The notes under the pieces are model-generated. The model was given only the letters and a program-made list of their open reading frames with translations, did not search any database and was not told where the DNA came from. From a phage, in the NCBI GenBank assembly GCA_015370545.1, contig GCA_015370545.1_3932.1: a DNA stretch of 64,000 nt; one strand, given 5' to 3'. Of this stretch, positions 311 through 28,090 are shown one piece after another (position 1 is the first letter of the stretch; each line of letters starts with the position of its first letter). A program made the translations under genes and the position numbers.

Positions 311-2545
311 ATGATTAAGACAATTAAAAAATCAAACGGTACAGTAGTAAGCTTTGACCCAGAAAGACTGAATAAATGGGCATCATGGGCAGATAAGCGT
401 GGAATTATCTGGTCAGAAGTCACTATGGAAGCTATGAAACGTGTCTATGAAGGTTGCACCACAAAAGAGATGCACCAAGCCATGATTGATGTTTGTGTTG
501 ATAAACAAACTCAAGAGTACTCAGACATGGCTGGACGGCTACTTCTGGGGATTATCTACAAAGAAGCCTTTGGAGGCTTTACTAAGGTTCCTACACTGAT
601 TACCTTCGTTAAAAATATGGAGAGAGCAGGACTTTGGGAGAAGATGGATTATTCACAGGAAGAGCTTGAATACCTGCAAGGTTACATCGTGCACTCAAAA
701 GATATCTCTTACGGTTATGCAGTCTTGAAACAGTTCAGAGACAAGTATGGCATCCGTGATATTAAAACGGGAAGACTTTTTGAGTCACCACAATTTATGT
801 TCATGGGTATGGCTATGAAAGCCTTTGAGAAGCAACCAAAGCACCGTAGACTGCAAGATGTTATCAAGCTGTACACTTACCTATCTGACCTAAAGATTAA
901 CGCTCCTACGCCCTATTTAAACGGTTTAAGAGCAACTAAATCGGGCTATGCGTCATGCTGTTTGATTAAGGCAAATGATACTGCTGAATCACTTGGTATT
1001 GCTGCAAAGGTTGCTTATGATATGACTACAAAGCAAGCTGGTATTGGTATGCTGATGGAGACTCGCACTATTGGTGATGGTATCCGTCAAAATACGATTG
1101 AGCACATGGGTAAGCTACCTTATTACAAGCTTGTACGTTCATCTGTAGAGGCAAATAAACAGAAGAGTCGTGGTGGTTCAGCTAATAACTTCTACACTGC
1201 TCTAGACCCGCAGATTGAAGATTTACTGCGTTTGAAGCACCCTACAACGGTTCCTTCTAAACGTATTAATGAGATGGACTACTCATTCGGTACAAACGAT
1301 TATTTCTGGCAGTGTGTTCAGTATGATACAGATTGGTTGCTATTCTCTTACAAAGATGCACCAAAACTCTATGACATGTTCTACACAGCATCTGCTGATG
1401 AGTTTGCTATGGCAGTTGGTCACGCAGTACATTCAGGAGTTAAGCACAGACGAGTCAAGGCTCGTGAAATTGCTAAGCTGTTTATTCAACAGCGTTATGC
1501 TACAGGTCGTGTGTATCCATTCTTCACTAACAATGCAAACACACATACACCATTTAAAGAACCATTGAAGATGTCAAATCTTTGTATGGAAATTGTATTG
1601 CCAGTGTATGGTTTTGAGAAAGAGACAGACCTTTACAGAGACGATGCTGTGAAAGAGGATGGTGAGGTTGCTCTTTGCTTCCTAGCTAGTTTGGTTGCAG
1701 GGAGAATTTCAGAAGATGAATACGCTGACGTTGCTTATTATGCTCTTGCAATGGTTGACTCCGTTATTGACCTTATGGATTATCCGTATCCGTCGATGCG
1801 TAACCATGTTCAGAAGCGTCGTTCTGTTGGGATTGGCCTTACAAATGTGGCTCACTACCTTGCGAAGAACTACGTGAACTACTCTTCACGAGCAGGTAAA
1901 ACGAAGCTTCATGAGCTTGCTGAAATGCACTCTTACTACTTACACGAAGCTTCTTTAAGACTTGCTAAAGAACGTGGTGTGCCTGAGTATATGCAGTTCA
2001 CTAAGTATCCTGAAGGATGGGTTCCTCCAAAGACAGCTAACAGGAAGATTGATGAGAAGCATGATGCAAAGCTAAGATATGATTGGGATGACTTAGCACA
2101 ACGTATCAAAGAGAACGGTGGAATCCGTAACTCTGTATTAGAGGCTTACATGCCTAATGAGAGTTCTTCTCTGGCGACTAATACAACTAACGGCTTGTAC
2201 CCAATTCGTGACTTTATTTTAACTAAAAAGTCTGCAACTGGTAACGTACTGTTTATTGTTCCAGATTATGAAGAGTTGAAGTATGTATATGAAATTGCTT
2301 GGGATATTGATACCTTTGACCTGATTGATTGTTATGCAATTGTTCAAAAGTTCACTGGTCAAGCTATCTCTTCAGACTTCTATGTTGACTATGCAAAGTC
2401 TAAGAAGGTATCATTGGCTCAAGCTCTGAAGTATATGATTTATGCCAACTCGGTAGGTATGAAAACCATGTACTACCTTAACAGTCGCATCGGTGTAGGT
2501 AAGTCTGCACTGCAAGATGCTTATTGCGAGGGCTGTGGTGTTTAG
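311..2545 (+). CDS. nrdA: ribonucleotide reductase class I large subunit
   Basis: 744 aa; N-terminal ATP-cone-like region, SNLCMEIVLP active-site motif, C-terminal CEGCG redox tail; followed by nrdB. Confidence 0.9.
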   Translation: MIKTIKKSNGTVVSFDPERLNKWASWADKRGIIWSEVTMEAMKRVYEGCTTKEMHQAMIDVCVDKQTQEYSDMAGRLLLGIIYKEAFGGFTKVPTLITFVKNMERAGLWEKMDYSQEELEYLQGYIVHSKDISYGYAVLKQFRDKYGIRDIKTGRLFESPQFMFMGMAMKAFEKQPKHRRLQDVIKLYTYLSDLKINAPTPYLNGLRATKSGYASCCLIKANDTAESLGIAAKVAYDMTTKQAGIGMLMETRTIGDGIRQNTIEHMGKLPYYKLVRSSVEANKQKSRGGSANNFYTALDPQIEDLLRLKHPTTVPSKRINEMDYSFGTNDYFWQCVQYDTDWLLFSYKDAPKLYDMFYTASADEFAMAVGHAVHSGVKHRRVKAREIAKLFIQQRYATGRVYPFFTNNANTHTPFKEPLKMSNLCMEIVLPVYGFEKETDLYRDDAVKEDGEVALCFLASLVAGRISEDEYADVAYYALAMVDSVIDLMDYPYPSMRNHVQKRRSVGIGLTNVAHYLAKNYVNYSSRAGKTKLHELAEMHSYYLHEASLRLAKERGVPEYMQFTKYPEGWVPPKTANRKIDEKHDAKLRYDWDDLAQRIKENGGIRNSVLEAYMPNESSSLATNTTNGLYPIRDFILTKKSATGNVLFIVPDYEELKYVYEIAWDIDTFDLIDCYAIVQKFTGQAISSDFYVDYAKSKKVSLAQALKYMIYANSVGMKTMYYLNSRIGVGKSALQDAYCEGCGV

Positions 2546-2600
2546 TTTTAATAACTATGAGGGTCGTAAAAGACCCTCTAAAATTAACTTTGGAGAGACT

Positions 2601-2858
2601 ATGAAAGACTTAATAGCAAATCACGAGTGGCCTATATACTTGCTCCACAAACCTCGAAAAACGCTGTACTATGTGAGTAGCACAGATATGATGATAAAAC
2701 AAAATGATGACTCATGGGTCGCTGGTGTCTCTTACATCTCTACAGCAGATGGTAAAATCTATGCAAGACCTTATGACATGTTTAATAAAGAAAATTGGGA
2801 AGTTTTAGACAGAAAACAAGCCTTAGAGATGATAAAGAAAGGAGAAATCACATTATGA
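2601..2858 (+). CDS. hypothetical protein
   Basis: ATG at 2601 after hairpin 2559-2578, SD-like GGAGAG; stop overlaps nrdB start (ATGA); the longer 2517 ORF start overlaps nrdA. Confidence 0.4.
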   Translation: MKDLIANHEWPIYLLHKPRKTLYYVSSTDMMIKQNDDSWVAGVSYISTADGKIYARPYDMFNKENWEVLDRKQALEMIKKGEITL

Positions 2859-3928
2859 TTAACCAACACCCAATCTTTTTAGGTGGTGAGAGAAAGACAT
2901 TTGACTCACTTAACAAGCACTACCCAAAAATCTTTGAGCTATATAAACAACAAAAAGCGCAAGACTGGTCAGAAGATGAGTTCCCTTTTGAACAATCACG
3001 TCTTGATTTTGAAAGTGTGCCAGCATCAATGTCAGGTGTAATGCTTGAGATTCTTAAGTGGCAGTGGGAAGCAGATACCCAAGTTGCTAAAAGTTTAGCG
3101 TTTGCTTTTGCACCATTCATCTCTGATGACATTTATGCAACTGCAATTATGAAGCAGTCTGAGATTGAAAACCTACACGCCCTGACTTACTCGGAGATTG
3201 TAAGGCAATGTATTAAAAATCCTGAAACAATCTTAGATGAGATTAACCAGAACATTGCTGTACAAGACCGATTAAAAACTGTGAATCGTGTTCTTGAAGA
3301 ATTGCTGGATGAAGGTATAAACTATCGACTGAGTTATGTCCGTGACTCACTTCTGGACAAAGACCCTTTACACTTCCATAAAGTGATTCTGAAAGGTCTA
3401 TTTGCAGTGACTGCACTGGAAGGTATATCTTTTATGGCATCCTTTGCATGTACTTTTGCACTTGATGCTCAAGATAAATTTCAGGGTATTGCTCAAGCTG
3501 TGCAGAAGATTATGCTTGATGAAATCCTTCACACTAAAATTGATATTGAAGTTTTAAAAGAAACTTTAAGAGATGACGAGTGGCAGAAAGCTTTTCAACA
3601 AATTCTTCCAGAGATTAAAGTAATCTTAGATGAAGTAGTTGAAAGTGAAGAGAAATGGTCGTATTATATCTTCTCTGAAGGACGTGCTGTAGTTGGGTTA
3701 AATACAAAACTTCTTCATGAGTGGGTTTACTATAATGCTGCCCCACTGTATGATATGTTTGGCATTCCCAGAGATTTTGTAGCTCCTAAAGAACCACCTT
3801 TGAAGTACATGATTAAGAAGATGGAAATTGATAAAGAGCAGAATGCTAATCAGGAGCAACAGAACGGTGCGTACCTATTGAATACTGTTGTAGATGATTT
3901 GAATAGTGGATTTTTAGAGGTTCCTTAA
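2855..3928 (+). CDS. nrdB: ribonucleotide reductase class I small subunit
   Basis: ferritin-like diiron protein; start taken at ATG 2855 preceded by AAGGAG. Confidence 0.85.
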   Translation: MINQHPIFLGGERKTFDSLNKHYPKIFELYKQQKAQDWSEDEFPFEQSRLDFESVPASMSGVMLEILKWQWEADTQVAKSLAFAFAPFISDDIYATAIMKQSEIENLHALTYSEIVRQCIKNPETILDEINQNIAVQDRLKTVNRVLEELLDEGINYRLSYVRDSLLDKDPLHFHKVILKGLFAVTALEGISFMASFACTFALDAQDKFQGIAQAVQKIMLDEILHTKIDIEVLKETLRDDEWQKAFQQILPEIKVILDEVVESEEKWSYYIFSEGRAVVGLNTKLLHEWVYYNAAPLYDMFGIPRDFVAPKEPPLKYMIKKMEIDKEQNANQEQQNGAYLLNTVVDDLNSGFLEVP

Positions 3929-4417: not shown

Positions 4418-6562
4418 ATGAACAAAGTACAGATTATTAAAAAGAATGGCTCACTTGAAGAACCTGATATCAAAAAAGTTTTAGCAGCAGTAACTAAGTC
4501 AGCTAACAGGGTTGGGTATAAAGAACTTCCACCAGATGTTACCCAAGCTCTTGAGTCAGCATTCATGAGGATTCTGGTGAAGTCCACTAAGCAGAATAAT
4601 TTGCTCATCTCGGTAAATGACATTCACAGTATTGTTGAGGGTGCTTTGGCAGAAGTCAATCACGAGATTTACGAGTCTTACTCAACATATAGAAATTACC
4701 GTAAAGAGGTTGCTCAAAATTGGGATGAGCTTTACCAAAAGACTAGAGACACACTCTTCTTAGGTGACCGTGAAAATGCCAACTTTGACAGCAGTTTAAT
4801 TTCTACAAAAGGTTCAATTATTCGTGGTTATCTGACTAAAGAAATCTTTAAACAATACCATTTAACACCAGAGGAACTTGAAGCCATTGAAAAAGGGTTT
4901 ATCTACATCCATGACTTAAGAGACTTAATTTTTGGTGGTATTAACTGCTGCTTGTTTGACATTGGTAAAGTACTGAAAGGTGGCTTTGAAATGTCTGGCA
5001 TCGAATACTGTGAACCGAAGTCTGTACTGTCAGCCTTACAGGTTATTGGTGACGTAGTACTTTCAGCAACTGCACAGCAATTTGGTGGTTTTACTTTAGC
5101 AGAGATTGATAAGGTACTTGTACCGTATGCTAAGAAGTCTCTACGCTATCATGCTGAGAAAGCATCATCTTATGGTATTCCTAAAGAGCATTACCACAAT
5201 TATGTAATGGAGCAGTTACAAATTGAACTGACTCAGGGTTTTCAGTCACTTGAGATGAAACTAAATACCGTACCTTGTAGCCGTGGTGATTTTGCATTCA
5301 CAACTTTAACATTTGGTTTACTTGACTCAGATATGTCTAATGAGGATAATCGACTCCAATACATGATTGCAAGTACTCTCCTAGATGTTCGTATGAATGG
5401 ACAAGGCAAGAGCAAAAAACCTGTTGTATTCCCTAAACTGGTTTATATTTATGACCAGAAGAGACATGATGAAAATATCTGTCAAGGCCACCTGTACAGT
5501 AAAGCTATCGAGTGTTGCTCTAAAGCGATGTATCCAGATTTCTTAAGTGTGTCTGGTCATGGTGCTGTAGCAGAGGCTTTTGAGCGTTCTGGTAAGGTAA
5601 TTTCACCGATGGGTTGCAGAGCCTTTTTATCTCCATATCTTAATGAGGGTGGAGAAGAGTTCTACGTTGGTCGTGCTAACATTGGTGCTGTATCTTTGAA
5701 CTTACCAATGATTTACCAGTATTCTAAAGAGAATGGTTTAGATTTCTGGAAAGAGCTTGATAAGTACCTAGAGATGATTCGTAGTTTCCATAAGAAACGC
5801 TACGAAATGATTGCTAATATGCCAGCAAGTTCTAACCCTCTTGCATTCACACAAGGTGGTCTGTACAAAGGAACTAAGAAACCTACTGACAAGGTTGGTT
5901 GGGATATTGTGAAGTCCTTCACAGCTTCTTTTGGTGTTACTGCGCTTGATGAGTTGTCTGTTCTTGCTGAAGGTAAACGACTTCATGAAGTTGGAAGCTA
6001 TAGTTTTGCATATGATGTTCTGGCATACATCAACATGAAAACCGAAGAGTTTAAAAATGAAGATGGCTTCTTATATGCCGTCTATGGTACTCCAGCAGAA
6101 TCACTATGTGGGACTCAGCTAAAACAGTTCAGAGATATGTTTGGCGTTATCAAAGGTGTTTCTGACAAGGAATACTTTACAAACAGTTTCCATATGAATG
6201 TTGCAGCAGACATCTCACCATTTGAGAAGCAGGACTTAGAAGAACCATTCTTCCATATCTGTAGAGGCGGTAGAATCCAGTATGTAAGAGTAGCTAACCC
6301 AGAAAACTTATCAGCACTTAAAAGTTGTATTACAAGAGGGATGTTGAAAGGTTTCTATCAGGGACTTAACTTTGACTTAGCAATCTGTGAGCATTGTGGT
6401 AACAGACCAAAGGCTGATGTTGAAGAATGTGAGGTTTGCCATTCACATGATATCTCTGTGATTAACAGGGTGTGTGGGTATCTTGGATGGACTAAGATTA
6501 AAGGTGAATCCCGAATGAACGATGCAAAAATCGCTGAGATTCGTGACAGAGTTTCTATGTAA
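4418..6562 (+). CDS. nrdD: anaerobic ribonucleotide reductase class III
   Basis: 714 aa; C-terminal CxxC...CxxC zinc ribbon and glycyl-radical motif RVCGYLG. Confidence 0.9.
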   Translation: MNKVQIIKKNGSLEEPDIKKVLAAVTKSANRVGYKELPPDVTQALESAFMRILVKSTKQNNLLISVNDIHSIVEGALAEVNHEIYESYSTYRNYRKEVAQNWDELYQKTRDTLFLGDRENANFDSSLISTKGSIIRGYLTKEIFKQYHLTPEELEAIEKGFIYIHDLRDLIFGGINCCLFDIGKVLKGGFEMSGIEYCEPKSVLSALQVIGDVVLSATAQQFGGFTLAEIDKVLVPYAKKSLRYHAEKASSYGIPKEHYHNYVMEQLQIELTQGFQSLEMKLNTVPCSRGDFAFTTLTFGLLDSDMSNEDNRLQYMIASTLLDVRMNGQGKSKKPVVFPKLVYIYDQKRHDENICQGHLYSKAIECCSKAMYPDFLSVSGHGAVAEAFERSGKVISPMGCRAFLSPYLNEGGEEFYVGRANIGAVSLNLPMIYQYSKENGLDFWKELDKYLEMIRSFHKKRYEMIANMPASSNPLAFTQGGLYKGTKKPTDKVGWDIVKSFTASFGVTALDELSVLAEGKRLHEVGSYSFAYDVLAYINMKTEEFKNEDGFLYAVYGTPAESLCGTQLKQFRDMFGVIKGVSDKEYFTNSFHMNVAADISPFEKQDLEEPFFHICRGGRIQYVRVANPENLSALKSCITRGMLKGFYQGLNFDLAICEHCGNRPKADVEECEVCHSHDISVINRVCGYLGWTKIKGESRMNDAKIAEIRDRVSM

Positions 6563-6716
6563 AACTTGACATGGTGGTGTGAGTCTTGATAGGCTTACAT
6601 CACCTTTTTTATTGGATGTTAGATATGGCAGAGAGTATTATTGGGTTGTTCATAGGTTCTGTCTTACTAGGGTTCTTTTTAGGACTCTCTTATTGTGAAT
6701 TAAGAGGCAAGTTAAA

Positions 6717-6917
6717 ATGTTTAAAATATCAAAAGCGTTGATATACATTCTCCACATTCTAATCTTCTTCTTTGGGGTTAGTGTTATGGTATGGGGTTTT
6801 TCAGACCCACAATGGAGTTTCGCATATCAGGGTCAGATGGATTTATGGTCATGCTTCAAACCATTTTTAGGGTTAGTCATAGCATTCAGTGCATTGCCAA
6901 CTAAGGTGAAATTATGA
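6717..6917 (+). CDS. small membrane protein
   Basis: 66 aa, two hydrophobic helices. Confidence 0.35.
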   Translation: MFKISKALIYILHILIFFFGVSVMVWGFSDPQWSFAYQGQMDLWSCFKPFLGLVIAFSALPTKVKL

Positions 6918-7309
6918 TTAAGTTGAACAAAAAACAGTTAGAGTGGATTAAAGATTATGCCTCAGAGTGTGGCTCTTGCGAAAAGAATCACGTAAGATAT
7001 TCAACATTCCATACGACCTTCACATTGTACATCAGCGACAACGTTCTAAGTGATTCCGTAGAAGATGGTGTAGCGTTACCTAATGAATTGCTTGACAAAT
7101 TAGCTGTAGTCTCTGGAACTTGGTCTGAAGAAGACGGTCATGAATTATCTAACGATGTTGTCTTCTACACTCTTGAAAATATTATGAATCCAGAGTACAT
7201 TATGCTAATGACTTGTGCACAAGATTGTGTGCCATTACAAAACTTCATTAAAGAACACTGCGAAGAATTTATTACTAAACAGGTTCCTTGTCAGGTGGTG
7301 TTTGAATGA
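6914..7309 (+). CDS. hypothetical protein
   Basis: 131-aa ORF, start overlaps upstream stop. Confidence 0.4.
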   Translation: MIKLNKKQLEWIKDYASECGSCEKNHVRYSTFHTTFTLYISDNVLSDSVEDGVALPNELLDKLAVVSGTWSEEDGHELSNDVVFYTLENIMNPEYIMLMTCAQDCVPLQNFIKEHCEEFITKQVPCQVVFE

Positions 7310-7605
7310 GTAAAACAATTCGAAGAAAAGGTTTAAAGAACGTTCATGGACTCTATGAGTGGAGAAATGAGGTACGTAACAGAGAAAATGCTTCAGATGT
7401 CTACTTCCATTCTGATATGATGTCCAGAAAAGGTGGCTCTTACGACTTCACAAGCCAGCCTTGTAGAGAGATTAAGAAGGCCACTAAACGTCTTACAAGA
7501 ACACAAATAAGGCAGCTTTCTAAGACATCCTTCTTAGATGAAGATTTTGATATTGATAGCAAGTCTCCAAAGAAAGCCGCTAAGAACACTTATATGTATT
7601 GGTGA
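7306..7605 (+). CDS. hypothetical protein
   Basis: 99-aa ORF, start overlaps upstream stop. Confidence 0.4.
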   Translation: MSKTIRRKGLKNVHGLYEWRNEVRNRENASDVYFHSDMMSRKGGSYDFTSQPCREIKKATKRLTRTQIRQLSKTSFLDEDFDIDSKSPKKAAKNTYMYW

Positions 7606-7614
7606 GGTAACTAG

Positions 7615-8100
7615 ATGAATTACATGGAGATTCGACCATTTGACACAGCTAATGGTGAAGGGGTTCGTGTAAGCCTCTTCGTAGCTGGTTGTAAGCATCA
7701 CTGTGAAGGTTGCTTTAATAAGGAATCTTGGAAGTTTAATGCTGGTAAAGAGTTCACTTATGCAAACCTTTATGGCATCATTAAGTTAATGAATGATAAT
7801 GCCATCAGTGGGCTGTCAATACTTGGTGGAGAACCTCTGGATGATAGAAACATTCAAGAGGTTACCAACATATGCAAACGTATTAAAACCGTTTACCCAG
7901 AAAAATCTATCTGGCTCTGGACAGGTTTTCAGTTACACGAAAAAATTCACCTAGATGTGATGAAATATATTGACGTGGTGATTGATGGTAAGTATGATTC
8001 ATCTAAACCAACAGTTAAACCATATCGTGGTTCTGATAACCAAAACCTCTGGAGAAAAGAGTATGGGTGGCAAGGTGATTGTCAGTGGCGAGCCGAGTAA
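7615..8100 (+). CDS. nrdG: anaerobic RNR activating enzyme (radical SAM)
   Basis: 161 aa; CKHHCEGC radical-SAM cysteine cluster near N-terminus; follows nrdD. Confidence 0.85.
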   Translation: MNYMEIRPFDTANGEGVRVSLFVAGCKHHCEGCFNKESWKFNAGKEFTYANLYGIIKLMNDNAISGLSILGGEPLDDRNIQEVTNICKRIKTVYPEKSIWLWTGFQLHEKIHLDVMKYIDVVIDGKYDSSKPTVKPYRGSDNQNLWRKEYGWQGDCQWRAE

Positions 8101-8224
8101 GTCTCGTCGTAAAGTAGGTTATCGGTAAAGGCCACTTTACAATGTTCTACAGAACAAACTTAACCGTTTTGGTGTCACTGAAGAGCAACTTAAAACCTTT
8201 TGTGAAAAGATTGAGAGATATGAA

Positions 8225-8482
8225 ATGGGACTTTGGAATAGTTTTAAATTAAAAGTAAAAGCAGCACTAGCTTCATTAGGTATGCTCACTGGTGTTGATG
8301 TGACTCATCTTATGCAGAATTTTAAGATGGATGAGAGGCTGGCTAATGAGATTATGGAAAGTATCTATGTAGGCCGTGGCAAAGGTGGTAAGAAACAAGC
8401 CCACCGCCAATCCGGTGCAGCAGCTATTAAACGAGCAGCTAAGAAAGCTCGTAACCGTAAACGTAACAAGAAGGTTAAATAA
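8225..8482 (+). CDS. hypothetical protein (basic C-terminus)
   Basis: 85-aa ORF with Lys/Arg-rich tail. Confidence 0.4.
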   Translation: MGLWNSFKLKVKAALASLGMLTGVDVTHLMQNFKMDERLANEIMESIYVGRGKGGKKQAHRQSGAAAIKRAAKKARNRKRNKKVK

Positions 8483-8484
8483 CC

Positions 8485-8805
8485 ATGAGCAAAGTTTATA
8501 ACACTCGTAAATTACAGATTTTCGTACTGTGCCAGTTTATGGCTAAAGAATACAACTTCTACTATTGTGGTACAGGTTTTATTAGTGATGATGATGGCTC
8601 ATACCTCCCATTCAAAGAGGCTGTAAAACTCTTCAATGAAGAGAAAAGCTCTAAGAAAGATATTGAAAAGGTTAAGCTAACCTACAGCAAGAGAGATAAG
8701 AAGATTATCTGCCTAGATAACTTTGTGAAAGTTACTGGAGAAGCAAAAGAGTTTATGGATGAGAGTGAGATTTCATTCACAAGCATCTTGAAAGTAGCTC
8801 AGTAA
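8485..8805 (+). CDS. hypothetical protein
   Basis: 106-aa ORF immediately after previous stop. Confidence 0.4.
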   Translation: MSKVYNTRKLQIFVLCQFMAKEYNFYYCGTGFISDDDGSYLPFKEAVKLFNEEKSSKKDIEKVKLTYSKRDKKIICLDNFVKVTGEAKEFMDESEISFTSILKVAQ

Positions 8806-8856
8806 ACAGATACTATAAGGGGACTGTAAAGGTTCCCTTTTTATTTTGGAGATAAC

Positions 8857-9372
8857 ATGTATCTGTCAAATCTGAAACGTTCGGCTGCAATGTCAGTTCT
8901 AAGACTCAGCTTTGAGGAACGTCAAGAGTTCATTGACTCCCACCAATACGACCCTTCTAACTCAAATCACATGATTCTCTGGAATCGTGAGAGCACTCGT
9001 GAAAGAGCACTATTCCGCTATTACCCACACTACACTATAGATAATTTGTATGAATGTTTTGTTGTGAAGAACACCATTACAGTTCTCAATAAACTTTGCA
9101 GATACACAGATAGTCAATCCTTCACATTAGGTCACCACAAGCCTGTTACAAAAGGTGGTGAACATCACTGTGCAAACTGGTTTATTCAGACTAAAGCTGA
9201 TAATCAAAAGCAAGGAGATAGCCTTCTAAGCACTCCCAAGATGACCTATGAAGAGCAAGAGAAATATATCAAAAATAATATGCCAGATGTGCTTGACAAC
9301 AACTATACAGATTTGGCAATATCTCTCCTGTTGAAGTTCGAGACAGTTTATAGGGCAACTTACAATGGCTAA
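8857..9372 (+). CDS. putative HNH endonuclease
   Basis: HHKPVTKGGEHHCANW...NQKQ resembles the HNH H-H/GG/N pattern. Confidence 0.55.
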   Translation: MYLSNLKRSAAMSVLRLSFEERQEFIDSHQYDPSNSNHMILWNRESTRERALFRYYPHYTIDNLYECFVVKNTITVLNKLCRYTDSQSFTLGHHKPVTKGGEHHCANWFIQTKADNQKQGDSLLSTPKMTYEEQEKYIKNNMPDVLDNNYTDLAISLLLKFETVYRATYNG

Positions 9373-9643
9373 AGAAAAGTGGGAGATTTTACCACTAGTC
9401 AGTGAGGGTGGTAATGGTTGTGAAATGTACATGATACGTGGTCATGTCCCAGAACCAATTGCACTTGAGATGGTAAACAATTTTACAGATGGCTCTTACA
9501 AAGACTTGGGAGAACCAACTGTCAAGCAACAATGGGTTAAACCTGTACCAGACAGCACAGGTAACTGTAGTGTACTTTATCACGTTGTAGACCCTGCAAA
9601 ATGCAAATCTGCAATGGCAGTAACAAACGTAACTTTTGATTGA
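9365..9643 (+). CDS. hypothetical protein
   Basis: 92-aa ORF overlapping upstream stop. Confidence 0.35.
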   Translation: MAKEKWEILPLVSEGGNGCEMYMIRGHVPEPIALEMVNNFTDGSYKDLGEPTVKQQWVKPVPDSTGNCSVLYHVVDPAKCKSAMAVTNVTFD

Positions 9644-9658
9644 GAGAGAGAGAAAACT

Positions 9659-10123
9659 ATGATTTTTTGCAATTCCCAGAAGCATGTAATAGAGATTCTA
9701 TATAAGGAGTTTGGTACAGAGAACACCTTTGACTCAAATGAAGCAATTGATGTACTAAGAGAAAAAAGCCTCTTTATAAGAGGTCAATCAATTAACAATG
9801 CTCGTGGCTACCTAACAGTGCTAAGGCAATCCGGTGTACTGATAACTGTAGGCCAAATAAAAAGTAAGGGGAGACTAAGCATCAACCAGATTAACCGAGC
9901 TTTTATGGAGAAACACCCACAACTATCACGAATGTTAGATGATGGACATGGGGAGGTAAAGAGCCTTCAAAAAACAACCTCGACCGATGTTAATTCAGTT
10001 GACATACAACCAGATGTTAGGTATTTTATTGAGGATGTGATGTTTAAAACAATGGATGAAGCAGTTGAACACTGTAAAAAACATCTGATTAAAGTTAAAC
10101 GTGCAAAGATTGTTTGGGAATAA
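9659..10123 (+). CDS. hypothetical protein, tandem paralog 1
   Basis: 154 aa; shares ILYKEFGT..FDSNEAI and C-terminal YFI..MF.T..AVE.CKK..IK.KR.KI.WE with 10157-10609. Confidence 0.5.
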   Translation: MIFCNSQKHVIEILYKEFGTENTFDSNEAIDVLREKSLFIRGQSINNARGYLTVLRQSGVLITVGQIKSKGRLSINQINRAFMEKHPQLSRMLDDGHGEVKSLQKTTSTDVNSVDIQPDVRYFIEDVMFKTMDEAVEHCKKHLIKVKRAKIVWE

Positions 10124-10156
10124 TACTTCAAAAACTTCTATTGAGAGAAAAAGAAC

Positions 10157-10609
10157 ATGTTAAGTTCATTTTACATAGCACTGACTGAGATTCTATATAA
10201 AGAATTTGGTACAGATACCATCTTTGACTCTAATGAGGCTATAAAAGCTCTCAGAAGTGGAAGTGACTGCCTAAGTAAAAGCCCTATAGCAAACATTCGG
10301 TATTACTTGACCACAATGCGTAAAATGGGGCTACTGATGGCTGTAAGTCAGGGAACAAAAGACTGTGCTTCTCTATACCTAAACCAACTAAATAAAATGA
10401 TGATAGAGAGCGACCCACAACTATCAAGACTACTTGATAGTGTTGACAAAACTAATAGGAATACAAGAACATCAAAACCAAAAGGTGAGTTCCTCCCTGA
10501 TGCAAAATACTTTATTGATGAACTAATGTTTGATACCATAGAAGATGCAGTTGAGTATTGCAAAAAGAATATTATTAAGTTGAAAAGAAAGAAAATTATT
10601 TGGGAATAA
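10157..10609 (+). CDS. hypothetical protein, tandem paralog 2
   Basis: 150 aa; paralog of 9659-10123. Confidence 0.5.
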   Translation: MLSSFYIALTEILYKEFGTDTIFDSNEAIKALRSGSDCLSKSPIANIRYYLTTMRKMGLLMAVSQGTKDCASLYLNQLNKMMIESDPQLSRLLDSVDKTNRNTRTSKPKGEFLPDAKYFIDELMFDTIEDAVEYCKKNIIKLKRKKIIWE

Positions 10610-10635
10610 AACTACCATTATCGAGAGAGAAAACT

Positions 10636-11517
10636 ATGAAAACATCTATCCGTGTTACAGTTCATTCACCAACTAAAGGAACTCATGAAGAAGAGTTTAA
10701 CATCATCCAATTTCCTTCTGGTGAGATTGGTGGACACTTTTCGCCAGAGTTTGTTGATTTCACTGCTTATGCAGCATCATCCATCAACAATGTGATTATG
10801 ATTGTAAAAGGTTATGATAAGGATACATTGTTTGCTGTGGCACTTGCTAAAGAAGCAATTGATGATTTAATTCCTCATGGTTATGCTTTAAAGACTGTCA
10901 TCTTTTACTACTTACCAAATGCACGTTATGACCGTCACATGTTTAAAGGCGACGCAGCAGCTTTAAAGGTTTTTGCTAAACAGGTAAATGCAATGGGATT
11001 TGGTGCAGTCTGTGCAGTTGACCCTCACAGCTATGTACCAGATAACCTGTTTAACTGCTTCCAGAGTATTCCTCAAAAGGAAATTGCAGTCCACTATGCA
11101 AATGACCCACTGATTGATTACTTAGTAGCCCCAGATGCAGGTGCTGCTAAGAAGATTGCAGAGACTGCTAAAGAGGTGGATAAACCATATATCACAATGT
11201 CTAAAGTACGCAACCTTAAGACTGGTGAAATTACTGGTATGCGAATCCTTGATGATGTTGATTTGACAGATAAAACCGTCATGATTCTGGATGATATCTG
11301 TGATGGTGGTCGAACCTTCATAGAAGCAGCTAAACATCTTCGTGAAGCAGGTGCAAAACGTGTGGAACTCTATGTAACACACGGTATCTTCTCTAAAGAT
11401 GTTGAAAACCTTCTTGACAATGGCATTGACCACATCTACACTACAAACTCTTTAGGGGAAGCTAAAGACCGTGGCTTAACACATTATGGTCAAGTTACTG
11501 TAGCAAACCTTGATTGA
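10636..11517 (+). CDS. Prs-family pyrophosphokinase (PRPP synthetase-like; possibly ADP-ribose diphosphokinase Adps)
   Basis: ILDDICDGGRTFIEAAKHLREAGAKRV matches the Prs PRPP-binding loop; start at ATG 10636. Confidence 0.75.
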   Translation: MKTSIRVTVHSPTKGTHEEEFNIIQFPSGEIGGHFSPEFVDFTAYAASSINNVIMIVKGYDKDTLFAVALAKEAIDDLIPHGYALKTVIFYYLPNARYDRHMFKGDAAALKVFAKQVNAMGFGAVCAVDPHSYVPDNLFNCFQSIPQKEIAVHYANDPLIDYLVAPDAGAAKKIAETAKEVDKPYITMSKVRNLKTGEITGMRILDDVDLTDKTVMILDDICDGGRTFIEAAKHLREAGAKRVELYVTHGIFSKDVENLLDNGIDHIYTTNSLGEAKDRGLTHYGQVTVANLD

Positions 11518-11525
11518 AACTTTAT

Positions 11526-11548
11526 AGGGGCTTAAAAGCCCCATTTTG
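11526..11548 (+). terminator. intrinsic terminator or attenuator
   Basis: GGGGCT-TAAA-AGCCCC hairpin followed by ATTTTG. Confidence 0.55.
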
Positions 11549-11562
11549 AGAGAGATTAAAAG

Positions 11563-13344
11563 ATGACTAAATCACTTTATGCAGTACCAGCAGGTTTAAA
11601 CGCAGATGCTTACAAATCTGGTCATGTTTACCAGTACCCTAGTGCAACAGAGTACTTGATGTTCAACCTGACACCACGTAGTGACAAATGGTTTAACAGC
11701 CCCTTAGCAATTGATGGTGTAGTAGCTTTTGGTATTCAACGTTTCGTTAAAGATTACTTGATAGACCACTGGAACGCCACTTTCTTTGAACGTGATAAAA
11801 AAGAAGCCATTGATGAAATCTTAGAAGTCATGAATGGTGTTCTGGGTAAAGATGCTATCGGTCGAGAGCATTGGGAAGCACTTCACGACTTAGGTTATCT
11901 ACCAGTTGAAGTATACGCTGTAGAAGAAGGTACAGTTGTTCCTATGCGTGTACCAATGATTGTCTTCCAGAACACTGTTTCAGGTTTCCATTGGGTAGCG
12001 GGATATCTGGAAGATGCTTTCTCTGCTGAGATTTGGAAGGCTTGTACCATTGCAACTATTGCATTGCATTATAAACGCATCTGTAAGAAGTGGGCTGACC
12101 TTACTTGCGACAATGACTTACATTTACCTTATCAGTGCCATGACTTTGCTATGCGTGGTATGTCCGGCTTTACTGATGACGCATTTAACGCTGTAGGCCA
12201 CTTAACCAGCTTTAAAGGGACTGATAGCTTCCCTGCTGTATATACAGCTAAACGCATCTACGGACAGTCTTACCAAGTCTCTGATATTGGTGGTTCTGTA
12301 CCAGCCACTGAACACTCTGTAATGTGTGCAAACATTGCTTGGGAAGGTGGTAATGAGTTGGTTGAAGAAGAAAGACGCTTTAAAGGTGAGTTACAAACCT
12401 TCCGTCGTTTCTTAACAGAAACTTACCCAACGGGTATTGCAAGTGTTGTTTCAGATACTTATAACTTCTGGAGAACTGTGTCAGAAATCTTACCAGCACT
12501 CCGTAAAGAAATTATGGAACGTGATGGCAAACTGGTAATTCGTCCTGACTCTGGAGACCCTGTACACATTGTCACAGGTTATAAAACAATCCACTTAGAG
12601 TGTGCTAAAAAGGCTTATTACGAGCACCTAAGTAAGCTGGAAGCCAGTGACGCAATGCTGAATGCTGTTCTGAACATGAAGCTTGAAAACATCAGCTATG
12701 GTATTGCTGGATGGCTACTGTCAGAAGGCTACGAAATGGTTGTTGACAGAGAAGACTTTGAAGTTGCTGATACAGTGCTGTTGAAGAACGCTTATATGGT
12801 TGGCTCTGCAAACGTTGTAACACGCCCTGTAGCAGAGATTGATGGAGCTATTAAGACCTTGTATAACATCTTTGGAGGAACTATCAACTCTAAAGGTTTT
12901 AAGGTACTGGATGAGCACATTGGACTTATCTATGGTGACTCTATCACGTTGGAACGTGCAAACGAAATCCTGAAGCGTCTGTATGAAATGGGGTTTGCAA
13001 GCTCTAACGTGGTGTTTGGTGTAGGCTCTTACACTTACCAGTACATGACTCGTGACACCTTTGCATTTGCTGTCAAAGCAACTCTTGCAAGCATTGGTGG
13101 CAAAGAGATTATGCTTGCAAAAGACCCTAAAACAGATAGTGGTGTTAAGAAATCTGCCTTTGGTGGTGTAGCACCTATGTGGGATGGTGAGAATTTGAAA
13201 GCTGTAGATGGCTACGGATTCCAGAGCTTTGCAGATGCACTTGACCACCCAGCTTGTGCTTTACGTTTAGTCTTTAGCAACTCTGAGCAGTTCGGTTACA
13301 CATCTCTTGGTGATATTCGAAATAATATTGACAAGCAGCTTTAA
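11563..13344 (+). CDS. nicotinamide phosphoribosyltransferase family protein (NAMPT/NadV-like; possibly Namat)
   Basis: 593 aa; N-terminus MTKSLYAVPAGLNADAYKSGHVYQYP recalled as NAMPT-family-like; adjacent to Prs-like gene. Confidence 0.75.
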   Translation: MTKSLYAVPAGLNADAYKSGHVYQYPSATEYLMFNLTPRSDKWFNSPLAIDGVVAFGIQRFVKDYLIDHWNATFFERDKKEAIDEILEVMNGVLGKDAIGREHWEALHDLGYLPVEVYAVEEGTVVPMRVPMIVFQNTVSGFHWVAGYLEDAFSAEIWKACTIATIALHYKRICKKWADLTCDNDLHLPYQCHDFAMRGMSGFTDDAFNAVGHLTSFKGTDSFPAVYTAKRIYGQSYQVSDIGGSVPATEHSVMCANIAWEGGNELVEEERRFKGELQTFRRFLTETYPTGIASVVSDTYNFWRTVSEILPALRKEIMERDGKLVIRPDSGDPVHIVTGYKTIHLECAKKAYYEHLSKLEASDAMLNAVLNMKLENISYGIAGWLLSEGYEMVVDREDFEVADTVLLKNAYMVGSANVVTRPVAEIDGAIKTLYNIFGGTINSKGFKVLDEHIGLIYGDSITLERANEILKRLYEMGFASSNVVFGVGSYTYQYMTRDTFAFAVKATLASIGGKEIMLAKDPKTDSGVKKSAFGGVAPMWDGENLKAVDGYGFQSFADALDHPACALRLVFSNSEQFGYTSLGDIRNNIDKQL

Positions 13345-13358
13345 AAGTATATGATAAG

Positions 13359-13382
13359 AGGCTCCTACGGGAGCCTTTTTAA
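13359..13382 (+). terminator. intrinsic terminator
   Basis: AGGCTCC-TACG-GGAGCCT hairpin followed by TTTT. Confidence 0.7.
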
Positions 13383-27841: not shown

Positions 27842-28090
27842 ATGTCAACTATCCGCGTAACTGTTAATGCTTATGGCTGCCACAAACTTGATGCAAAATT
27901 CGATATCGGTGGAACAGATAACACCTTTGACCTTATCAAAATGCTGATTCAGCAGGTGATACCAGATTATAACCCTACTGATGACTTCTGGAAAGATGCC
28001 GTAAAAGAAGCCATAAACGAGGAATCTCACTACCATTATTGGGGTGACTTGATTGTCTCTCTATACTACAGCAAACAAGGCTACAACTAA
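27842..28090 (+). CDS. hypothetical small protein (cassette gene 13)
   Basis: 82-aa ORF behind type A element. Confidence 0.5.
   Translation: MSTIRVTVNAYGCHKLDAKFDIGGTDNTFDLIKMLIQQVIPDYNPTDDFWKDAVKEAINEESHYHYWGDLIVSLYYSKQGYN

Follow-up and report, generated by a model that had tools for sequence, protein, structure and literature searches.

A probable recombination-mobile cassette of two ancient paralogues with predicted winged-helix folds beside the NARP1 genes of a Felix O1-like phage

The 64,000-nucleotide stretch of phage DNA analysed here (the window) carries two adjacent genes, A and B, that are true ancient paralogues and functional genes under constraint. It is very likely, on top of this, that together they constitute an accessory cassette, mobile through recombination, beside the counter-defence genes of NARP1. 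We propose more tentatively, and with the odds slightly against us, that their products are DNA-binding winged-helix proteins that associate through a C-terminal module, a mechanism based on structure models. Description and mechanism together are our best explanation, with a probability of about 0.5 that is a compromise weighted towards the mechanism. The window comes from a Felix O1-like myovirus (Felixounavirus, Ounavirinae), with positions 1-25000 being ~95% identical to many Felixounavirus records. A and B lie head to tail on the + strand, each preceded by a GAGAG-type Shine-Dalgarno leader at canonical ribosome-binding site (RBS) spacing, and the two adjacent open reading frames of ~150 amino acids described in an earlier note on this DNA are present exactly where that note placed them (A, 154 residues; B, 150 residues). 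The features of the region are as follows.

8817..8839, + strand: terminator-like hairpin preceding the six-gene unit 8857-13344
9365..9643, + strand: upstream gene, 92 amino acids, phrog_4726, orthologue of bas63_0078; left border of the insertion site
9646..9661, + strand: left flanking direct repeat GAGAGAGAAAACTATG, RBS plus gene A start codon
9659..10123, + strand: gene A, 154 amino acids, PHROG 29478; predicted winged helix at residues 1-95 (nucleotides 9659-9943) and predicted disordered linker at ~98-121
10010-10120, + strand: predicted beta-beta-helix module at the C terminus of A (residues ~118-154)
10140..10159, + strand: spacer between A and B, holding a degenerate leader copy (ATTGAGAGAAAAAGAACATG), RBS and start of gene B, from the sequence and a junction alignment
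10157..10609, + strand: gene B, 150 amino acids, PHROG 29478; paralogue of A, predicted to share its architecture
10623..10638, + strand: right flanking direct repeat, RBS plus Adps start codon, 977 nt from the left copy
10636..11517, + strand: Adps (ADP-ribose pyrophosphate synthetase, annotated prs), first NARP1 gene; Pfam Pribosyltran and Pribosyl_synth
11563..13344, + strand: Namat (nicotinamide ADP-ribose transferase, annotated nadV/NAMPT), second NARP1 gene; Pfam NAPRTase and NAMPT_N
13356..13379, + strand: terminator-like hairpin just past Namat

The formal pairwise alignment that the earlier note had proposed places the similarity of A and B far above chance, with 68 of 146 positions identical (47%), 64% positives and an E value of 4e-38 (BLASTP) over the whole length. 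The N-terminal (ILYKEFGT..FDSNEAI) and C-terminal (YFI..MF.T..AVE.CKK..IK.KR.KI.WE) blocks that it had singled out are shared by both proteins; in the DNA the former corresponds to 69 nt of 80% identity at a spacing of 495 nt, which amino-acid conservation explains. Its description of similar ends around a different middle holds for the ends, but the similarity extends throughout and only ~25 residues (A 95-121) align poorly. This stretch is predicted to be disordered, and non-synonymous divergence peaks there (pN 0.57). Over the full genes, pN is 0.36 and pS is 0.70, a value at which synonymous sites are saturated. Since pS is uniformly high in all 15-codon blocks (0.55-0.82), a recent conversion event between the two genes of the window was rejected. 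A-type and B-type orthologues are found in the same order in the Mooglevirus phages Mordin and Henu11 (75% and 56% identical to the window copies of A and B, respectively), and the duplication is therefore older than the split between Felixounavirus and Mooglevirus. The saturated pS and the Mooglevirus orthologues bear out the ancient tandem duplication with divergence that had been suggested from the sequence.

As dS between A and B is saturated, a formal dN/dS carries no meaning for this pair and the proposed selection analysis was carried out with orthologue pairs. A, with an orthologue pN of 0.11-0.13 against a pS of at least 0.72, evolves more slowly than B, whose orthologue pN is 0.26. 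The resulting pN/pS ratios of ~0.15 for A and ~0.35-0.4 for B indicate purifying selection on both genes and no positive selection, and the closely related pair Mordin and Henu11 gives a dN/dS of 0.16-0.22. Chance open reading frames or decaying pseudogenes without function might be missing from most relatives and lack a domain recognizable by sequence, as A and B do. However, a pN far below pS effectively refutes this reading, the frames are intact in every carrier across two genera, RBS spacing is canonical and the predicted fold is confident, so that it retains hardly any probability.

Both proteins match PHROG 29478, a family of unknown function, A with residues 1-154 on profile positions 1-150 (E 6.1e-70) and B with residues 1-150 on positions 2-150 (E 6.2e-58). 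An exhaustive profile search of 1.84 billion (1.84e9) representative proteins yielded only four clusters, each of them from Ounavirinae-like phages, and a word-indexed profile search of 5.8 billion (5.8e9) proteins returned 16 family clusters, with no remote homologue outside Ounavirinae-like contigs in either search. The closest records are Pr103Blw_00123 and Pr103Blw_00124, which share gene order and insertion site with the window and are 100% (A) and 98.7% (B) identical to its copies. These, and the family members Mordin gp8/gp7 and Henu11 gp29/gp30, are annotated as 'hypothetical proteins'. The pair was already known in this sense, in GenBank and as a PHROG, and is a real but ordinary one from a well-sampled phage genus. 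Pfam, NCBIfam, PADLOC and PDB sequences gave no credible match for A or B, and our literature search found no paper on the PHROG 29478 family or on accessory or anti-defence genes of Felixounavirus. Sub-threshold matches to Cas9_RuvC (E 0.012), NDUS4 (E 0.12) and NCK SH2 (E 0.26) were taken as chance, as was a match to SgcJ/EcaC (E 5e-4) that is below the family cut-off. There is no third copy in the 64-kb window by tblastn or by a search of all six-frame open reading frames with the family hidden Markov model (HMM); a weak tblastn match at 27881-28081 (E 0.8), considered as a third paralogue, was unsupported by the family HMM.

A survey of copy number across relatives had also been suggested. 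By tblastn, 16 of ~250 Ounavirinae records contain the family, with two copies in five of them and four in the other eleven, so that the cassette is absent from ~94% of relatives and the copy number at the same site is 0, 2 or 4. In the four-copy arrays, for example that of Salmonella phage vB_CECAV_041 (locus 1654-3380; 151, 131, 154 and 126 residues), long and short genes alternate (long-short-long-short) and all are mutually related. The first long copy of the vB_CECAV_041 array looks like a mosaic of A and B, and pS between the long copies is 0.17-0.25 in the last 30 codons and ~0.85 elsewhere, a pattern in the sequence that suggests local inter-paralogue gene conversion at the 3′ end. The most distant family member (P0011) is a single copy on a divergent Ounavirinae-like metagenomic contig. 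It occupies a different site, after rIIA-rIIB-SLT-PNK and 5.8 kb downstream of Namat, and is located behind its own near-consensus sigma-70 promoter (TTGACG-17-TATAAT).

The A and B pair is a 977-bp cassette between the bas63_0078-like gene and Adps, and has the flanking repeats at its edges. Allowing two mismatches, the 16-mer GAGAGAGAAAACTATG, which comprises an RBS plus ATG, occurs exactly twice in 64 kb (0.07 occurrences expected by chance), at 9646-9661 and 10623-10638, which are the two cassette edges. The prs-like gene directly follows the 92-residue phrog_4726 gene in most relatives, among them SP22, wV8, EC6 and Bas63, and in SP22 and Bas63 the junction of the empty site has a single copy of the repeat. 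The degenerate third copy of the leader in the A-B spacer implies a repeat unit of leader plus gene with a period of 495-498 nt. The flanking repeats of Mordin (37 nt; loci 1609-1645 and 2574-2610) and Henu11 (39 nt; loci 1607-1645 and 2573-2611) are perfect and reach back into the upstream gene, covering its final codons and stop. Between these two phages the repeat sequences differ (CATTTG versus CAAACG), but the copies within each genome are identical, which implies either recent (independent) insertion or homogenization by concerted evolution.

The window itself is a three-way mosaic with breakpoints at the cassette edges. Region 9000-11600 as a whole is 96% identical to Escherichia phage vB_EcoM-Pr103Blw; positions 9644-10606 differ from this phage by only two mismatches while the flanks differ by 3-15 per 100 nt. 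From 10623 to 12200 the window is nearly identical to the empty-site phage SP22, with the left flank differing by 4-20 per 100 nt. Compared with vB_CECAV_041, gene A has a pS of 0.72 and the flanking genes have a pS of 0.17-0.25. The breakpoints and the contrast in pS imply that the cassette is exchanged as a unit and that its alleles long predate the backbones in which they are found. The simplest mechanism for duplication, deletion and transfer alike would be recombination between copies of the leader. Homologous or unequal recombination at the repeats in the initiation regions may have produced the original duplication, in which each unit is a leader plus a gene, and the same process could generate the 0/2/4-copy polymorphism among relatives and move the cassette between co-infecting phages. 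As a natural case, the locus illustrates cleanly how small cassettes are acquired, lost, multiplied and traded among Felix O1-like phages through recombination at repeated translation-initiation leaders.

Patchy distribution, precise in-register insertion between flanking repeats and near identity between phages with differing flanks are also what a selfish cassette would show, one that promotes its own spread without benefit to the phage in the manner of free-standing homing endonuclease genes, in which Felixounaviruses are rich. However, A and B have no match to HNH, GIY-YIG, LAGLIDADG, integrase or transposase families, their invariant residues form no catalytic pattern, and gain and loss by recombination require nothing beyond the flanking repeats. 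We therefore consider a selfish cassette highly improbable. Phage 'morons' and the exchange of cassettes at repeated intergenic sequences, for example the PeSL-mediated shuffling of T4-like phages, are parallels to the accessory cassette, which is likewise an accessory unit between conserved genes, has short regulatory repeats at its borders and is gained and lost by recombination. Unlike in PeSL, the repeat here is an RBS/start region, joined in Mooglevirus by the 3′ end of the preceding gene, rather than a promoter-stem-loop, and the cassette in the window lacks its own promoter and terminator.

The earlier note had placed the pair in a nucleotide-metabolism module. This misreads the annotation, since the prs-like and nadV-like genes downstream of the cassette, annotated as ribose-phosphate pyrophosphokinase and nicotinamide phosphoribosyltransferase, are the Adps and Namat of NARP1, and the context of A and B is corrected to a counter-defence pathway. 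Over their full length, the window proteins share 79% (Adps, with Bas63 gp79) and 97% (Namat, with Bas63 gp80) amino-acid identity, and the best PDB sequence matches of Namat are chains deposited as nicotinamide phosphoribosyltransferase (E 5e-128). Experiments with Bas63 have demonstrated that NARP1 (Adps plus Namat) rebuilds NAD+ from ADP-ribose and nicotinamide, that it lets this phage (accession MZ501086; 10.1101/2024.10.10.617714, the PhageMaP preprint) overcome the NAD+-depleting SIR2-HerA defence, and that the pathway can be reconstituted from the two enzymes alone (10.1101/2024.02.11.579819). In Bas63, gene 78 is directly followed by gene 79 and the cassette site is empty. Since NARP1 works in Bas63 without A and B, these genes are not part of it.

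The start of Adps is placed at ATG 10636, behind the repeated RBS, in all annotated relatives; a mechanical list of open reading frames opens the gene at TTG 10600, so that it would overlap the last nucleotides of gene B. Between the window and SP22, Adps has a pS of 0.00, and between the window and Bas63 it has a pS of 0.55, with the differences nearly all in the first ~180 residues and ~97% identity in the last 113. This distribution points to a recombination breakpoint inside the gene and two deeply diverged N-terminal alleles.

On the + strand no terminator-like site lies between A/B and Adps, and within the region of the unit the only such hairpins are those at 8817-8839 and 13356-13379. 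This makes a common transcript of A, B and the NARP1 genes probable. An annotated terminator of the Mordin record is located at the place equivalent to 8817..8839. The sigma-70-like promoter of P0011 suggests early expression of the family, and A and B would then be produced early from a transcript that they likely share with NARP1. In containing small proteins of predicted helix-turn-helix type that are apparently co-transcribed with a counter-defence operon, the locus resembles those of the Aca (anti-CRISPR-associated) regulators, and A and B might by analogy be dedicated transcriptional regulators of the NARP1 genes downstream, as Aca proteins are repressors of anti-CRISPR operons. However, Aca genes are consistently linked to acr operons, whereas ~94% of Ounavirinae keep Adps-Namat in the same place without A or B and the distant P0011 is not linked to NARP1. 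No convincing operator-like inverted repeat was found near the cassette or upstream of the unit, only long-range pairs of low complementarity, and a single promoter has no need of two to four diverged paralogues. Regulation of NARP1 is accordingly an improbable role for the pair.

Structure modelling provides the orphan PHROG with a predicted fold. AlphaFold2 models, built on shallow family alignments of 9-11 sequences, predict for A an N-terminal winged helix (H5-18, b23-25, H26-36, H45-58, b61-67 and b73-78; pLDDT ~88), followed by two short helices, a disordered linker (98-121) and, at the C terminus, a beta-hairpin joined to a long basic helix, and for B the same order of elements. The predicted topology, H1-b1-H2-H3-b2-wing-b3, is that of a winged helix, and there is structural similarity to solved winged helices: the best Foldseek matches of B are the winged-helix proteins MukF, PadR, RovA and Fur, which are weak (E 0.018 or worse). 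Hence, we predict an N-terminal winged-helix fold for both proteins. Among long-type members, residues N47, R49, Y51 and R56 of the predicted recognition helix (H3) do not vary. Divergence between A and B is greatest in the H2-H3 turn, the variable H3 positions, the wing and the linker, and in the family alignment the wing of B is devoid of the basic residues found in A.

The C-terminal 35 residues are the hallmark of the family ([YF]F[IV]....F.[ST]...A[IV]E[HY]C[KR]..[IV]I..K..K[IV][IV]WE-COOH). This module is strongly basic, is the most conserved part of the family with an invariant end (...K-I/V-I/V-W-E), and is the one region through which the first profile search matched P0011. Its model confidence is low (pLDDT 33-71), which makes its fold and any role in dimerization conjecture.

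Sequence profiles set the predicted proteins apart from known winged-helix families. Structural alignments with the small dimeric winged-helix factors of the MarR/SarA-SarX, PadR, Fur and BlaI/MecI types are only 7-16% identical; the MarR, PadR, Fur and BlaI/MecI profiles of Pfam and NCBIfam gave no match even at E ≤ 1, and the family profile against PDB sequences gave nothing better than E 0.26. Unlike these factors, A and B have a C-terminal module that is without metal-site residues and has no detected counterpart. The winged helices of MukF/kleisin, ORC/Cdc6 and the NLR WHD are domains of large multi-domain proteins, whereas A and B are stand-alone products of 150 residues.

In the mechanism that we propose, the predicted winged helix would bind nucleic acid, most likely DNA, and the C-terminal module would probably serve in self-association, association between the paralogues or docking to a common partner. 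Because A and B diverge mainly in the turn that precedes the recognition helix, at non-invariant positions of that helix and in the wing, they would be expected to recognize different targets. As both genes appear dispensable for the basic lytic cycle, their most likely role would be to modulate host factors, or the expression of phage or host genes, in certain conditions. Three observations weigh against binding to DNA: winged helices also function as protein-protein modules, as several of the top structural matches do (MukF, NLR, ORC), the basic wing residues of A are missing in B, and the surroundings of the cassette yielded no candidate operator.

A winged helix that acts as a protein-interaction or DNA-mimic-docking surface would fit an alternative in which A and B are counter-defence or host-takeover effectors that bind a host immune or regulatory protein directly, the paralogues serving different host variants and the genes forming a small anti-defence island with NARP1. 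The pair lies immediately upstream of an experimentally proven counter-defence system with no terminator-like site in between, it is present in only ~6% of relatives and in 0, 2 or 4 copies, and its alleles are horizontally exchanged and deeply diverged relative to the flanks. Small size, orphan status and probable early expression, as in these proteins, are typical features of anti-defence genes, and the relatives carry other variable cargo around 8857-13344 (HNH endonuclease or methylase genes). However, neither protein matches a known anti-defence or defence family (PADLOC defence HMMs returned 0 families for A, B, P0010 and P0011), selection on the orthologues is purifying rather than diversifying, P0011 lies 5.8 kb from NARP1 beyond rIIA-rIIB-SLT-PNK, and the NARP1 of Bas63 works without the pair. 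We regard direct effectors as plausible but unlikely, at about one chance in four. Slightly less likely still is the bolder proposal that PHROG 29478 is a new class of counter-defence or host-takeover proteins, in which a diversifying winged-helix 'specificity' domain is combined with a conserved C-terminal effector or docking module and delivered as a 0/2/4-copy mobile cassette in the NARP1 operon; if true, Felix O1-like phages would assemble a modular anti-defence island by plugging this cassette into the operon.

The evidence on the arms-race function that the earlier note attached to such duplicate pairs is mixed. The orthologues evolve under purifying and not positive selection, which does not fit it, but the rare presence/absence polymorphism and the exchange of deeply diverged alleles do, and these are as expected of accessory genes for host interaction. 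Since the 0-, 2- and 4-copy states occur naturally at one site and the empty-site phage Bas63 is tractable, the function of the DNA-binding proteins proposed here is directly testable with isogenic phages.

Several further genes were noted in the course of the analysis. The divergent contig of P0011 carries a 178-residue gene without a Pfam match between Adps and Namat (locus 1892-2428) and, a few kb past the family member, a 246-residue Macro-domain (ADP-ribose-binding) protein (locus 12505-13245), and both are further candidate accessory genes related to NAD or ADP-ribose. The first gene of the six-gene unit in the window (8857-9372; 171 residues, phrog_3500) weakly matches HNH-endonuclease PHROGs (E 6e-4 and 4e-3) and, below the cut-off, DUF7167; it is kept in all relatives examined and is thus not obviously a mobile endonuclease. 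The nrdD gene of Bas63 (locus 6631-9517) is annotated as two joined pieces with a putative homing endonuclease gene between them, and the window has one uninterrupted open reading frame of 714 residues (4418-6562) in its place. A cluster of 26 tRNA genes occupies 39412-44688 of the window on the + strand.
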